Shown here: in pieces, positions 1 through 16,904 of the stretch
Layout: every line of letters begins with the position of its first letter
Numbering within the stretch: the stretch's first letter is position 1
From: Escherichia coli
GTDB taxonomy: Bacteria > Pseudomonadota > Gammaproteobacteria > Enterobacterales > Enterobacteriaceae
NCBI RefSeq assembly: GCF_003334305.1
Contig: NZ_QOWS01000017.1
Direction: 5' to 3' (one strand)
Length of the DNA stretch: 64,000 nt
Translations under genes and position numbers: made by a program
Notes under the pieces: model-generated
What the model saw: the letters and a program-made list of their open reading frames with translations, nothing else
Databases searched by the model: none
What the model was told of the DNA's origin: nothing

Positions 1-477
1 GACAGTTACGCAATCAGTGAAAAGAGTCACGGCAGAGAAGAAATCCGTCTTCATATTGTTTGCGATGTCCCTGATGAACTTATTGATTTCACGTTTGAAT
101 GGAAAGGTCTGAAGAAATTATGCGTGGCAGTCTCCTTTCGGTCAATAATAGCAGAACAAAAGAAAGAGCCCGAAATGACGGTCAGATATTATATCAGTTC
201 TGCTGATTTAACCGCAGAGAAGTTCGCCACAGCAATCCGAAACCACTGGCACGTGGAGAATAAGCTGCACTGGCGTCTGGACGTGGTAATGAATGAAGAC
301 GACTGCAAAATAAGAAGAGGAAACGCCGCAGAATTATTTTCAGGGATACGGCACATCGCTATTAATATTTTGACGAATGATAAGGTATTCAAGGCAGGGT
401 TAAGACGTAAGATGCGAAAAGCAGCTATGGACAGAAACTATCTGGCGTCAGTCCTTGCGGAGAGCGGGCTTTCGTAG
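1..477 (+). pseudogene. ISAs1-family (H-repeat-associated) transposase, C-terminal fragment; ORF 124-477 continues a frame running off the window start
   Basis: Translation ...[28 protein letters not shown]... resembles the C-terminus of H-repeat/ISAs1 transposases; no N-terminus or terminal inverted repeats visible. Confidence 0.5.
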
Positions 478-7060: not shown

Positions 7061-7339
7061 TTACCCAAAGAGCGCCGCGTGAGTTCCAGTTCTCTCAAAT
7101 CGTAAAAGTTTATCGGTAAGTTTGTAAATCAGGATCCAGTCCGGTTCGACATGAGCATCGCGATAACCTTTCCATGAACCTTGCAGCGGGTGGTCTTTAT
7201 AAACAGCTGGAAGCGGTAAAGTATTATTGATAAGAAGCGTCATAAGATATTTCAATTTATTCATATCCTTATGACGCTTTTGTGCAAGTTTTACATCCTT
7301 TGAAAATTGTCCCGAGTATTCAATATCCCTTTGAATCAT
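7061..7339 (-). CDS. yafQ: type II toxin, RelE/ParE-family mRNA interferase
   Basis: 92-aa ORF immediately downstream of dinJ on the same strand; sequence matches YafQ. Confidence 0.9.
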   Translation of the reverse strand: MIQRDIEYSGQFSKDVKLAQKRHKDMNKLKYLMTLLINNTLPLPAVYKDHPLQGSWKGYRDAHVEPDWILIYKLTDKLLRFERTGTHAALFG

Positions 7340-7341
7340 AT

Positions 7342-7602
7342 TTAAATTCCTAATTTATCAAATAAATCATCGGCGTCTTTGGCCTTATGAACATCAACGC
7401 CAGCTTCGCTGTTTTTGATTGATTGAATGGTTAATTGATTAGGCTCGCGTAAATCAAACGGCAATGCCTTTTCACGCGCGACCTTTGTGAGGGTTATGCG
7501 AACCAGGTCAGAGATGGTCAGCCCCATCCCGGCCAGTACGTCCGCCGCCTGATTCTTCAGATCTTCATCGATTCGGGCGCGAACAAATGCGTTAGCAGCC
7601 AT
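7342..7602 (-). CDS. dinJ: type II antitoxin for YafQ
   Basis: 86-aa ORF; RHH-type N-terminus; operon partner of yafQ. Confidence 0.9.
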   Translation of the reverse strand: MAANAFVRARIDEDLKNQAADVLAGMGLTISDLVRITLTKVAREKALPFDLREPNQLTIQSIKNSEAGVDVHKAKDADDLFDKLGI

Positions 7603-8561: not shown

Positions 8562-8617
8562 ATGGGTAATATTGACGAACTGACAAAAGGTCGGATGCCA
8601 CGCGGCATCCGACCTGT

Positions 8618-8974
8618 TTACATCTGGGCTGAAAACTCACGTTCTAAGACATCAACAATGAGCTGGTTTTTTGAAATGGAATGTTGTCTGGCGACGATGG
8701 TCAGCCGCGAATCAATGTGATGAGGAACACGAAGCGTCAGGCGTTTTTGCTCTTCTTCTTCACGAAAAGGGGCAATACCGTCCTCTTCACAATCCGCCAT
8801 CCACTCATCCAGCGCGCTTTCGCCTTCACGATATAATGCCTCAATACTTGTGGCTACAAAGTCACAATAACCGTTTACATTGAGGAACTTGCCGCGAAAT
8901 GCGTTGATATCGGCTTCAAATGTTACTGCGGCTGGTTGACCTTTAATTGTGATAATGTTCGATGCTTTATTCAT
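8618..8974 (-). CDS. HicB-like antitoxin (RNase-H-like N-domain plus C-terminal ribbon-helix-helix)
   Basis: 118-aa ORF; C-terminal …RLTLRVPHHIDSRLTIVARQHSISKNQLIVDVLEREF is a typical RHH; start overlaps the stop of the upstream ORF. Confidence 0.5.
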   Translation of the reverse strand: MNKASNIITIKGQPAAVTFEADINAFRGKFLNVNGYCDFVATSIEALYREGESALDEWMADCEEDGIAPFREEEEQKRLTLRVPHHIDSRLTIVARQHSISKNQLIVDVLEREFSAQM

Positions 8975-9266
8975 AATCTACCCCTACACAGTTAACAAAC
9001 CACTCCTTAAGACCTGCTACTGCGCCTTTATCCATCACATTCTTTGGATGTGGCTCATGTGTGCTGAATTTGGTCGTTCCAATCTGAAATTTTCGTCTGG
9101 AGCCGTTGTTATTTTTTATTGTTCCACCCACAGCTTTAATGAGTGCAACAACATCATCCCATTTAATTCCAGATTTTGGCGGCTCCGTCATTACATCGTC
9201 GAATGTTTTTCTATGACGAGAACCTAGCGCGCTGACCTTAATCATACTATCAATCCATGACGTCAT
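8967..9266 (-). CDS. HicA-like toxin (putative mRNA interferase), possibly N-terminally extended
   Basis: 99-aa ORF with a …GGTIKNNNGSRRKFQIG…HEPHPKNVMDKGAVAGLKE… pattern resembling the HicA G-S-H-h-h-F / PHPKK core; translationally coupled to the HicB-like ORF. Confidence 0.45.
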   Translation of the reverse strand: MTSWIDSMIKVSALGSRHRKTFDDVMTEPPKSGIKWDDVVALIKAVGGTIKNNNGSRRKFQIGTTKFSTHEPHPKNVMDKGAVAGLKEWFVNCVGVDYE

Positions 9267-9349
9267 TGTATGGTGTCATCGTAGTCTCTTTGCAGTGTGA
9301 CGTCAATTAATGGTGTCAGGTGCTGCAAAGCATGGAAAAGAATCCCCCA

Positions 9350-11819
<2,470 letters not shown>

Positions 11820-11856
11820 ATGCTGAATCTTTACGCATTTCTCAAACCCTGAAATC

Positions 11857-11876
11857 ACTGTATACTTTACCAGTGT
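11857..11876. promoter_or_regulatory. LexA (SOS) box in the dinB promoter
   Basis: cactgtatactttaccagtg conforms to CTGT-N8-ACAG, immediately upstream of dinB. Confidence 0.6.
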
Positions 11877-11889
11877 TGAGAGGTGAGTA

Positions 11890-12945
11890 ATGCGTAAAAT
11901 CATTCATGTGGATATGGACTGCTTTTTCGCAGCGGTGGAGATGCGCGACAATCCCGCCCTGCGCGATATCCCTATTGCTATTGGCGGCAGCCGCGAACGT
12001 CGGGGGGTGATCAGCACCGCCAATTATCCCGCGCGTAAATTTGGCGTACGTAGCGCTATGCCGACAGGGATGGCGCTCAAATTATGCCCGCATCTCACCT
12101 TGCTTCCGGGGCGCTTTGACGCCTACAAAGAAGCCTCAAATCATATCCGTGAAATCTTCTCGCGCTACACCTCGCGTATTGAACCGTTGTCACTGGATGA
12201 GGCTTATCTCGACGTCACCGATAGCGTCCATTGCCACGGTTCTGCGACCCTCATCGCCCAGGAAATCCGCCAGACGATTTTCAGCGAGCTGCAACTGACG
12301 GCGTCTGCGGGCGTGGCACCAGTAAAGTTTCTCGCCAAAATCGCCTCCGACATGAATAAACCCAACGGTCAGTTTGTGATTACGCCGGCAGAAGTTCCGG
12401 CATTTTTACAAACCTTACCGCTGGCAAAAATCCCCGGCGTCGGCAAAGTCTCGGCGGCAAAACTGGAAGCGATGGGGCTGCGGACCTGCGGTGATGTACA
12501 AAAGTGTGATCTGGTGATGCTGCTTAAACGCTTTGGCAAATTTGGCCGCATTTTGTGGGAGCGTAGTCAGGGGATTGACGAGCGCGACGTTAACAGCGAA
12601 CGGTTGCGAAAATCCGTCGGCGTGGAACGCACGATGGCGGAAGATATCCACCACTGGTCTGAATGTGAAGCGATTATCGAGCGGCTGTATCCGGAACTTG
12701 AACGCCGTCTGGCAAAGGTAAAACCTGATTTACTGATTGCCCGCCAGGGGGTGAAATTAAAGTTCGACGATTTTCAGCAAACCACTCAGGAGCACGTCTG
12801 GCCGCGGCTGAATAAAGCTGACTTAATCGCCACCGCGCGTAAAACCTGGGATGAACGCCGCGGCGGGCGCGGTGTGCGACTGGTGGGGCTGCATGTGACG
12901 TTGCTTGACCCGCAAATGGAAAGACAACTGGTGCTGGGATTATGA
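11890..12945 (+). CDS. dinB: DNA polymerase IV (Y-family translesion polymerase)
   Basis: 351-aa [25 protein letters not shown]... canonical Y-family N-terminus. Confidence 0.95.
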
Positions 12946-13394
12946 ATAACATACAAATAAGAGACTATCAGCCTGGCGATTTTCAGCAACTATGCGCTAT
13001 TTTCATTAGAGCGGTTACGATGACTGCCAGTCAGCATTATTCACCACAACAAATTGCCGCCTGGGCGCAGATTGACGAATCTCGCTGGAAGGAGAAACTC
13101 GCGAAATCACAAGTGCGGGTTGCAGTCATTAATGCAAAACTGGTCGGCTTTATTACCTGCGTTGAACACTATATCGATATGTTATTTGTTGACCCTGAAT
13201 ACACCCGCCGTGGGGTTGCCAGCGCTTTGTTAAAACCTTTGATTAAGTCTGAATCCGAACTTACGGTGGACGCAAGCATAACCGCAAAACCCTTTTTTGA
13301 ACGTTATGGTTTTCAGACAGTTAAGCAGCAACGCGTTGAATGTCGGGGAGAGTGGTTTATTAATTTTTATATGCGTTATAAACAGCAACATTAA
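12942..13394 (+). CDS. yafP: GNAT-family acetyltransferase
   Basis: 150-aa ORF overlapping the dinB stop; GNAT motifs. Confidence 0.8.
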
Positions 13395-13612
13395 ATCCAG
13401 CTTGCAATGAAAATAACGCAAGCCTAGTATGTGCGCGTTTTCTTATTCCACAAACTGCAAGGAGGTAAATCATGACAAATCCTTTATCAATGACTCTTTG
13501 CAGACCTTTCCAGGATTAATTCTTTTTTTCTTGCCCTGGATTCGTCTGCCATTTCCTGATTTTTTAATTGTTACTCTCAATAATTCAAGTCGCAACACAT
13601 GCAACTTGAAGT

Positions 13613-14779
13613 ATGACGAGTCTATTTACGGAATGGTATATGGGCAATTATATTCGTCCCTTATCCGATGCGGTATTTACCATCGCATCTGATGACCTGT
13701 GGATCGAGAGTTTAGCGATCCAACAATTACACACCACGGCAAATTTACCCAACATGCAGCGCGTAGTGGGGATGCCAGATTTACATCCCGGACGCGGCTA
13801 TCCGATTGGCGCAGCGTTCTTCTCTGTTGGTCGTTTTTATCCGGCACTGGTCGGCAATGATATCGGCTGCGGTATGGCGCTATGGCAAACAGATATTCTC
13901 ACTCGCAAATACAACGCCGATAAGTTTGAAAAGCGATTATCAGATCTGGATGACGTTGCTGAAGAAAGCTGGCTGGAGGAAAACCTGCCGTCAGCATTTG
14001 CACAGCATCCGTGGCGCAGCTCGCTTGGCTCTATCGGTGGCGGCAATCATTTCGCTGAACTGCAACAAGTTGATCAAATCATCAACGCTGAACTGTTTGC
14101 ACTGGCAGGTCTGGATGCACAACATCTGCAACTGTTGGTTCATAGCGGCTCGCGGGGGGTGGGGCAGTCTATTTTACAGCGGCATATTGCCTCGTTCTCG
14201 CATCATGGTTTGCCTCAAGGCAGTGACGACGCGCTACGGTATATTGCGGAACATGACGATGCGCTGGCGTTTGCGTGTATTAATCGCCAGATGATCGCTT
14301 TGCGCATAATGCAACAAGTTAAGGCCACGGGAAGTCCGGTTCTGGATGTGGCGCATAACTTTGTTAGCGCGTGTCAAATCGGCGATCAACAGGGCTGGTT
14401 GCATCGTAAAGGTGCCACGCCGGATGACAACGGTCTGGTGATTATTCCCGGTTCACGTGGTGATTACTCCTGGATTGTACAGCCTGTTGCGAACGAAAAA
14501 ACGCTCCACTCGCTGGCGCATGGGGCAGGGCGTAAATGGGGGCGCACCGAGTGTAAAGGGCGTCTGGCAGCGAAATACACGGCGACGCAACTCTCGCGTA
14601 CTGAACTTGGCAGTCGGGTAATTTGTCGCGATAAACAACTCATCTTTGAAGAAGCGCCACAAGCCTATAAATCGGCTGAAAGCGTGGTGCAATGTCTGGT
14701 GCAGGCCGGTTTAATTATTCCTGTCGCGCGGCTGCGTCCGGTGCTAACGCTCAAAAACAGTGGAGGGAAAAAAGGATGA
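13613..14779 (+). CDS. RtcB-family RNA ligase paralogue (RtcB2)
   Basis: 388-aa ORF with RtcB hallmarks (…[15 protein letters not shown]…, …GGGNHFAEL…, …HGAGR…); stop overlaps the prfH start (ATGA). Confidence 0.8.
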
Positions 14780-15390
14780 TCTTGCTACAACTCTCCTCAG
14801 CGCAGGGGCCGGAAGAATGTTGTCTCGCAGTGAAAAAGGCGCTGGACAGGCTAATTAAAGAAGCTGCCCGACAAGACGTCGCGGTAACGGTGTTGGAAAC
14901 AGAAACGGGCCGCTACTCTGACACGCTGCGTTCAGCTCTGGTTTCTCTGGATGGCGATAACGCATGGGCATTAAGCGAAAGCTGGTGCGGCACTATTCAG
15001 TGGATTTGTCCGAGTCCGTATCGGCCTCATCATGGGCGCAAAAACTGGTTTCTGGGCATTGGGCGTTTTACCGCTGATGAGCAGGAACAATCGGATGCAA
15101 TCCGTTATGAGACGTTGCGTTCGTCGGGGCCGGGCGGTCAACATGTCAATAAAACCGACTCGGCGGTACGCGCCACGCATTTGGCATCCGGTATTAGCGT
15201 GAAGGTTCAGTCAGAGCGTAGTCAGCATGCTAACAAGCGGCTGGCACGATTGCTGATTGCCTGGAAGCTGGAGCAGCAGCAACAGGAAAATAGCGCGGTG
15301 CTGAAATCGCAGCGGCGAATGTTCCATCACCAGATTGAACGTGGCAACCCGAGACGGACATTTACAGGGATGGCTTTTATCGAAGGATAA
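14776..15390 (+). CDS. prfH: peptide chain release factor homologue PrfH (intact)
   Basis: 204 aa from MILLQLSS...; GGQ motif (…[16 protein letters not shown]…) of class I release factors. Confidence 0.8.
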
Positions 15391-15446
15391 TGAAGGATGA
15401 AACTGCCGGAAGGCGATTAAACGCCATCCGGCAGCAAATCAAATAA

Positions 15447-16904
15447 TTACTTCGCCGGAATTTCTTTCAGCAGTTCAGTCAGCAGTGTCCAGTAATGACC
15501 TACGCTTTCGATGTGAACTTGCTCATCCGGAGAGTGTGGACCGGTGATAGTTGGCCCGATAGAAACCATGTCCATTTCCGGATACGGTTTTTTGAACAGA
15601 CCACATTCCAGGCCCGCGTGGATAATCTGGATGTTCGGTGTTTTGTTGAACAGACGCTGATAGGTTTCACGTACCAGATGCATCACCGGAGAATTAGCGT
15701 CCGGCTGCCAGCCAGGATATGCGCCTTTCGCTTCGGTTTTCGCGCCAGCTAGTTTACCCAGCGAATCCAGCATGCTCACCACGTAGTCTTTACCGCTGTC
15801 GATCAGTGAACGGATCAGGCAGTGAATTTCTACGTTATTGTCAGTCATGGTCACCACACCGACGTTCAGGGAGGTTTCGACCACACCTTTTGCCACGTCG
15901 GAATTGCGGATCACACCGTTCGGGGTGGCGTTCAGCAGACGAATAAAGGTATCGCGAGATTTCGCAATCAGGGCAGCTTTATCGTTCGCTACAGAGTCCA
16001 GCAACAAGGCCAGATTTTTCTCTTTCTCTGCCAGCTCGTTTTTCAGGATCTCCTGATAGGTATTCACCAGAGATTTCAGGACGTCGACTTTATCAGCTGC
16101 GACAGCAATGGTCGCAAAGGCTTCACGCGGGATGGCGTTACGCAGTGTGCCGCCGTTGAAATCGATAAGGCGCAGATCCAGTTCTTCCGCATGACCCGCC
16201 AGGAAGCGCACCAGTAGTTTGTTGGCATTACCCAGGCCAACGTGGATTTCACCGCCGGAGTGACCGCCTTTCAGACCTTTTAAGGTTAACTTGAAGGTTT
16301 CAAAACCAGCTGGAACCGCTTCACGATCTAAATGCAGGTTGGAGGTGAAGTCGATACCCCCCGCACAACCCATGTAGATTTCACCTTCTTCTTCGGAGTC
16401 GGTGTTAATCAGAATATCAGCCTGCAACCAGTTGCTCTGTAAGCCGAACGCACCGTCCATACCGGCTTCTTCGGTCATGGTCAGCAGCACTTCCAGCGGG
16501 CCGTGAACCACGTTTTCGTCAGCCAGAACCGCCAGCGCAGACGCCATACCAATGCCGTTATCTGCACCCAGCGTGGTGCCGCGCGCTTTAACCCATTCGC
16601 CATCAATATAAGGCTGGATAGGATCTTTCGTGAAGTCATGCACGGTGTCGTTATTTTTCTGCGGCACCATATCGAGGTGGGCCTGTAAGACGACCGGTTT
16701 ACGATTTTCCATACCTGCGGTAGCAGGTTTACGAATCAGGATATTACCTACCTGATCGCGTTCGACATGGAAACCTTTCTCTTTTGCCCAACCAACAATG
16801 TATTCAGCGAGTTGCTCTTCATGATAGGACGGGTGAGGAATAGAACAGATTTTGGCAAAAATATCCCACAGCGGCTGTGGAGATAATTGAGACAGTTCAG
16901 ACAC
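15447..16904 (-). CDS. pepD: cytosol non-specific dipeptidase (aminoacyl-histidine dipeptidase)
   Basis: 485-aa ORF, M20-family peptidase sequence matching PepD. Confidence 0.95.
   Translation of the reverse strand: MSELSQLSPQPLWDIFAKICSIPHPSYHEEQLAEYIVGWAKEKGFHVERDQVGNILIRKPATAGMENRKPVVLQAHLDMVPQKNNDTVHDFTKDPIQPYIDGEWVKARGTTLGADNGIGMASALAVLADENVVHGPLEVLLTMTEEAGMDGAFGLQSNWLQADILINTDSEEEGEIYMGCAGGIDFTSNLHLDREAVPAGFETFKLTLKGLKGGHSGGEIHVGLGNANKLLVRFLAGHAEELDLRLIDFNGGTLRNAIPREAFATIAVAADKVDVLKSLVNTYQEILKNELAEKEKNLALLLDSVANDKAALIAKSRDTFIRLLNATPNGVIRNSDVAKGVVETSLNVGVVTMTDNNVEIHCLIRSLIDSGKDYVVSMLDSLGKLAGAKTEAKGAYPGWQPDANSPVMHLVRETYQRLFNKTPNIQIIHAGLECGLFKKPYPEMDMVSIGPTITGPHSPDEQVHIESVGHYWTLLTELLKEIPAK

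Follow-up and report, generated by a model that had tools for sequence, protein, structure and literature searches.

The two-gene dinB-yafP operon of an Escherichia coli strain as a probable empty site of the yafNO toxin-antitoxin cassette

In Escherichia coli K-12, the toxin-antitoxin genes yafN and yafO lie between dinB and yafP in the SOS-regulated dinB operon. In a 64,000-nucleotide stretch of E. coli DNA (RefSeq assembly GCF_003334305.1, contig NZ_QOWS01000017.1; hereafter the window), dinB runs straight into yafP, which raises the question of whether this allele has lost the yafNO pair or descends from a form that never carried it. The original prediction, which drew attention to the arrangement, left the choice between loss and ancestral absence open, and appropriately so.

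Both genes at the junction could be assigned with confidence. In an NCBIfam profile search, dinB matched the DNA polymerase IV equivalog NF002677 with 546 bits, and the 150-aa ORF downstream was covered from end to end (1-150 of 150) by the YafP equivalog NF007338, which scored 327.6 bits where 146 is the cut-off. The product of this ORF is 92% identical to K-12 YafP, occupies the same syntenic slot before rtcB-prfH-pepD, and is 100% identical to WP_001059855.1, which RefSeq annotates as yafP in many strains, confirming the proposed assignment. According to the ORF list and the sequence, dinB ends in CTG GGA TTA TGA and yafP begins with ATG AAT AAC, the stop of the former and the start of the latter sharing the same ATGA as predicted, and no frameshift or stop was found in either gene in the window. 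A tblastn search of the whole 64-kb window with K-12 YafN and YafO, queries validated by their own matches to NF007300 and NF007377, found neither gene (best E = 3.9), and alignment with K-12 MG1655 (L001), in which yafN and yafO do lie between dinB and yafP, showed the window to be without exactly 759 bp. In addition, the dinJ-yafQ pair, said in the original prediction to be retained nearby, is present about 5 kb upstream of dinB, where profile matches of 120.9 bits (TIGR00053) and 83.7 bits (TIGR02384) confirmed two adjacent genes.

That the 150-aa ORF is something other than yafP, a possibility raised together with the original prediction, or that the junction is an assembly artefact, is exceedingly improbable. 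Misassignment was checked for and not found, nothing spoke in favour of either idea, and both are ruled out by the full-length equivalog match, the 92% identity to K-12 YafP at a syntenic position before rtcB-prfH-pepD, and the occurrence of an identical junction in 2,570 complete genomes. It is thus nearly certain, for gene identities and architecture alike, that the window carries the dinB operon in its usual two-gene version.

Table 1. Features at the dinB-yafP junction and in its surroundings, in window coordinates
Feature	Position	Strand	Description
promoter-like site	11839-11866		upstream of dinB
LexA (SOS) box-like CACTGTATACTTTACCAGTG	11856..11875	+	read from the sequence; just upstream of dinB
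dinB, DNA polymerase IV	11890..12945	+	351 aa, intact; NF002677 and 99.7% protein identity to K-12 DinB
ATTATGA, single copy	12939..12945	+	holds dinB TGA and yafP ATG
shared ATGA	12942-12945		common to dinB stop and yafP start
yafP, GNAT-family N-acetyltransferase	12942..13394	+	150 aa, intact; NF007338 equivalog, identical to RefSeq WP_001059855.1
yafQ	7061-7339	-	type II toxin-antitoxin partner of dinJ; pair spans 7061..7602
dinJ	7342-7602	-	TIGR02384/TIGR00053 profile matches for the pair; RefSeq annotation of identical locus
overlapping ORFs, 118 aa and 99 aa	8618-9266	-	between yafL and the lfhA remnant
Flag-2 (lateral flagella) deletion scar	9350-11819		K-12-like
truncated lfhA/flhA	9350-11089	-	adjoins truncated lafU
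truncated lafU	about 11034-11819	+	Flag-2 deletion scar
rtcB-family RNA ligase gene and prfH	13613-15390	+	intact
ISAs1-family transposase, C-terminal fragment	124-477	+	NF033564

Upstream of dinB, the sequence CACTGTATACTTTACCAGTG overlaps a promoter-like −10 hexamer, TATACT, and would be the SOS (LexA) box known from the K-12 dinB promoter; it was found by reading, since the search pattern CTGT-N8-CAG missed a box that has the form CTGT-N8-CCAG. A single SOS-inducible, LexA-repressed mRNA would encode both DinB and YafP. The start of yafP lacks a well-spaced Shine-Dalgarno sequence, having only GGGA at positions −6 to −3. SOS-dependent YafP synthesis was shown in strain CFT073, and frameshifting was proposed for YafP on the grounds that no Shine-Dalgarno sequence was seen (Gutierrez et al. 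2011, PMC3105422). Judged from the nucleotides at the junction, the ATGA overlap accompanied by GGGA may be more simply read as termination-reinitiation coupling than as frameshifting, and such coupling at the overlap would be the most likely route of YafP translation. In strains of the window's type, dinB and yafP would be directly coupled, and results obtained in K-12 on the SOS control of yafNO are not transferable to them.

The arrangement is a known and very common polymorphism of E. coli rather than a peculiarity of this strain. The contiguous dinB-yafP junction, detected with a 100-nt probe centred on it, occurs in 2,570 of 5,426 complete E. coli genomes (~47%), and yafNO DNA is present in 2,847 of them, so that the two counts together cover almost every one of the 5,415 genomes in which the locus occurs; yafNO coverage was only partial in about 13 E. 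coli genomes. Over 8.3 kb (8600-16900), the window agrees at 100% identity with many chromosomes, those of H15, A7 and NCTC9088 among them. Gutierrez et al. (2011, PMC3105422) found 40-50% of strains to have the two-gene operon with the ATGA overlap, among them every B1 strain and CFT073, which was their model, and ascribed this structure to recombination between two ATGA sequences; with E. fergusonii being four-gene, the ECOR strain tree implied at least three losses, one of them in B1. Fraikin et al. (2020, PMC7167474) described dinB-yafP as an undisturbed, functional bicistronic operon, for example in UTI89, and yafNO as inserted into the dinB-yafP intercistronic region. The finding and both historical readings of it, loss and insertion, are therefore already in print. 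What we add is a 7-bp duplication around the cassette, a gap-free alignment of the empty junction with outgroups, and a low synonymous divergence of the cassette, and these three tilt the published question towards insertion at the root.

The 759 bp by which K-12 exceeds the window consist of a 752-bp cassette and one copy of ATTATGA, the K-12 sequence reading GGG-ATTATGA-(752 bp: yafN promoter, yafN, yafO)-ATTATGA-ATAAC. The same 7-mer stood at both ends of the cassette in 10 out of 10 four-gene alleles examined, eight of them from E. coli, one from a divergent 'E. coli' and one from E. whittamii. Because junction microhomology of at least 7 nt is expected by chance in only ~0.1-0.3% of random 759-bp segments at the same locus, either a deletion used the 7-mer as its substrate or an insertion produced it.

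The direction of change at the genus level emerges from the outgroups. Citrobacter amalonaticus (L009) carries yafK-dinB-yafP-pepD-gpt-frsA-crl, two Citrobacter-like metagenome contigs (L028, which is 94% identical to L009, and L029) carry yafK-dinB-yafP-rtcB-prfH-pepD, and Kluyvera sichuanensis (L010, L011) carries dinB-yafP-pepD with pepD-gpt downstream. In all five of these loci, the gap between dinB and yafP is 2-5 nt and no toxin-antitoxin pair lies in it. Given that these outgroup genera are syntenic and without the pair, dinB-yafP adjacency predates Escherichia and yafNO was inserted into it; and as both copies of the 7-mer contain ATGA, the ATGA overlap predates the insertion. The Citrobacter and Escherichia two-gene junctions align without a gap (TTATAAccgcgATG against TTATGAataacATA; in a longer form, GGGTTATAAccgcgATGAAC against GGATTATGAataacATACAA), and in this alignment a change of TAA to TGA in Escherichia makes the overlapping ATG, the old ATG having become ATA. 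Within the genus, the two-gene state with the same ATGA overlap occurs in E. marmotae (L008) and Escherichia sp. MOD1-EC7003 (L004), and the four-gene state in E. whittamii (L006) and the divergent 'E. coli' (L005). The scan of the genome collection for YafP, by exact peptide words, returned five loci and missed E. fergusonii and E. albertii, and one outgroup candidate (P0030, 67% identity) was left out because its assembly (L027) is riddled with frameshifts and offers no usable gene calls. We favour the view that the two-gene form is the older one, with ancestral absence at the genus level and then, probably, one insertion that duplicated 7 bp. The 752-bp yafNO cassette would have entered a pre-existing dinB/yafP overlap, duplicating the 7-bp target ATTATGA, and the window would carry the empty form of this insertion site.

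The age of the cassette was gauged from four-fold sites. Pooled over nine four-gene alleles, divergence at these sites was 0.146 for dinB, 0.160 for yafP, 0.119 for yafN and 0.048 for yafO, which places yafO synonymous divergence 3-5 times below that of the flanks, at only ~50 sites per pair. When E. whittamii is compared with E. coli, 1-2 of ~51 yafO sites are different, as against ~11 expected from the flanks (dinB ~0.21). Constraint could partly cause the low yafO synonymous divergence. As the synonymous divergence of the cassette falls far below that of its flanks, the cassette appears to have been exchanged among lineages and species after their split, and with yafNO exchanged between species, its presence in E. 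fergusonii is weak evidence for an ancestral yafNO. Taking the outgroups and the cassette together, we lean, with some caution, towards reversing at the root the published parsimony of a four-gene ancestor and at least three losses: the overlapped pair would be ancestral and yafNO a single later insertion that duplicated ATTATGA, is younger than the Escherichia species splits, was passed on from lineage to lineage and from species to species by homologous recombination in the flanking dinB and yafP, and was occasionally removed precisely. If this is true, the window presents an unoccupied toxin-antitoxin attachment site.

Two possible vehicles for the cassette were considered. The 7-bp flanking duplication is present around it, but the 752 bp yielded neither a transposase nor convincing terminal inverted repeats, and a transposon model was discarded for lack of them. 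As for a plasmid donor, the high-identity YafO matches labelled as plasmids proved to be F-prime or mislabelled chromosomes, and no close plasmid donor was found, the true plasmid homologues of YafO, mostly from Klebsiella, being at most 36% identical. At its left end, upstream of yafN in K-12 (L001 3800-3846), the cassette has direct repeats spaced by 12 nt that resemble TATTATGTATA, a motif with which the start region of yafP, TATTATGAATA, agrees in 10 of 11 positions. These repeats may be YafN operator repeats, and their resemblance to ATTATGA hints at a microhomology-guided insertion.

The operon also varies in other ways. A third allele, dinB-yafN-yafP, is found in Escherichia sp. E1V33 (L003 3624-4001) and E. 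coli MEI003 (L026 1449-1826), both of which have lost the yafO toxin gene by deletion at a short microhomology, TTAT, and kept the antitoxin. In strain GN06156 (L022 1654-2052), yafO has an internal stop; IS1 lies inside yafP in the two-gene strain 2012EL-2448 (H1), and in the yafNO region in two other hits (H41, H51), with yafO split in one of these two strains. For a core gene of E. coli, yafP itself shows unusual variability, the window and K-12 proteins sharing 92% identity next to a DinB that shares 99.7%. Pooled amino-acid divergence is 6.7% for yafP against 0.9% for dinB, at similar synonymous divergence, which suggests relaxed or diversifying selection on YafP.

The history of the window's own allele is a separate matter, as a precise deletion from ATTATGA to ATTATGA regenerates exactly the window sequence, so that the junction cannot separate descent from an empty site from emptying of a filled one. 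In the secondary loss modelled by Gutierrez et al. (2011), the ancestor was four-gene and then lost the cassette when its two ATTATGA repeats underwent illegitimate recombination or replication slippage, an event that exactly restored the overlap. The 7-bp direct repeats, kept in all four-gene alleles examined, are an adequate substrate for such an event, and at least two haplotype backgrounds other than the window's include a two-gene and a four-gene allele whose flanks match exactly: two-gene R6 agrees with four-gene Combat2C1 in every position for 363 nt on the left side of the junction and 216 nt on the right, and two-gene SI-NP020 agrees with four-gene O157 for 122 nt and 226 nt, respectively. 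Since these twins share identical flanks, there has been more than one change of state on the same background; the simplest event that could recur is a precise deletion through the 7-bp repeat, and short recombination tracts could bring about the same change. Loss is further in keeping with the decay of the cassette by other routes (the yafO deletion of E1V33 and MEI003, the internal stop of GN06156), with the four-gene state of E. whittamii and the divergent 'E. coli', and with the three losses deduced from the ECOR tree and four-gene E. fergusonii. By contrast, two outgroup genera and E. marmotae show the two-gene state to be the older one, and the movement of the cassette by recombination, seen in its low synonymous divergence, weakens the parsimony argument from E. 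fergusonii. Moreover, a four-gene twin of the window's own haplotype was not seen among the sampled records: haplotypes like the window's at 99% identity or more number ~1,000 records, all eight of the sampled records at least 99% identical to its junction region were without yafNO (seven plain two-gene and one with IS1), and the closest four-gene allele in the spread sample is at 98.2%. In the comparison of flanks, the nearest four-gene allele sampled already departs from the window's haplotype 66 nt leftward and 23 nt rightward of the junction. We regard secondary loss as a credible history of this allele that falls short of being probable.

It is also conceivable that yafNO was formerly present in the lineage and disappeared when homologous recombination brought in a two-gene allele from another strain, in which case the DNA itself would be of never-occupied descent, with no new deletion. 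NJ trees of four flank segments (dinB 5', dinB 3', yafP 5' and yafP 3') conflict strongly with one another, with the two states interleaved, and this disagreement, which is due to recombination, indicates that exchange in the region is frequent. Cassette divergence is uncoupled from flank divergence, and the region mixes its features independently, the window having Flag-2 deleted and strain C21 having intact motA and lafU at an identical junction. From the allele alone, however, an imported junction looks the same as one retained from the ancestor, and we consider the import rather unlikely; organismal loss by an imported empty allele is in any case compatible with never-occupied descent of the DNA. 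The flank trees show recurrent change of state without giving a direction for the window's haplotype, and E. coli includes both sites that stayed empty and sites that were emptied secondarily. Our lean for the window's allele, a slight one, is towards descent from the never-occupied ancestral form. At the genus level, the comparisons favour insertion. Overall, the account that we consider probable is that of a two-gene operon in which yafNO presence or absence is a polymorphism arising by insertion, with the window as an empty site.

Several neighbouring features were recorded alongside the operon. The truncated lfhA/flhA and lafU genes form a K-12-like scar of the Flag-2 deletion. Strain C21 shares the identical dinB-yafP junction and has intact fliL-fliA-motA-lafU, from which it follows that the Flag-2 deletion and the yafNO state assort independently. 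The overlapping 118-aa and 99-aa ORFs occupy the position at which K-12 presumably has rayT (yafM). Neither ORF had an NCBIfam match at E ≤1e-5; in the identical strain H15, RefSeq annotates them as a HicB-family antitoxin and a HicA-family toxin, the latter called from a start ~20 codons downstream. The window is thus without yafNO yet has a different toxin-antitoxin pair ~2.6 kb upstream of dinB. On the other side of the operon, the window encodes an intact RtcB-family ligase (388-aa ORF; 379 aa in RefSeq) and PrfH (232-aa ORF; 204 aa in RefSeq). K-12 and several other four-gene strains have rtcB and prfH only as fragments, and an intact rtcB annotation is kept in some four-gene strains. The transposase fragment near the beginning of the window matches NF033564 with 103 bits over profile positions 241-314 of 314.

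The two-gene configuration is normal in about half of E. coli and has been both described and used experimentally (CFT073), and the value of the present analysis is a modest one that concerns how chromosomal toxin-antitoxin cassettes evolve. For this, the locus offers a clean example, combining a cassette in a housekeeping operon with a 7-bp duplication, an empty outgroup site, and signs of both spread by recombination and decay.

Compared with the published two-gene operon of CFT073, UTI89 and the ECOR B1 strains (PMC3105422, PMC7167474), the window shows no material difference, having the same gene pair with the ATGA overlap and a putative LexA-box promoter and no yafN or yafO. Its yafP allele is of the B1 type, with 92.7% DNA identity to yafP of R6 and E166, the most divergent two-gene alleles among those sampled. 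The four-gene operon of K-12 has the same flanking genes and promoter, with DinB 99.7% identical, and lies in a similar neighbourhood with lfhA'-'lafU upstream and pepD-gpt downstream, but its YafP is only 92% identical and its rtcB-prfH genes are fragments of those that are intact in the window. Citrobacter amalonaticus and Kluyvera sichuanensis resemble the window in their syntenic two-gene order without a toxin-antitoxin pair, whereas their dinB stop is TAA, their yafP starts 2-5 nt after it and 9 nt downstream of the Escherichia ATG with no ATGA overlap, and their YafP has 147 aa and ~57-60% protein identity. A parallel is provided by relA-mazEF-mazG, where a toxin-antitoxin pair of another family, at another locus, likewise sits between two cistrons of an operon that is undisturbed where the pair is absent (Fraikin et al. 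2020, PMC7167474).
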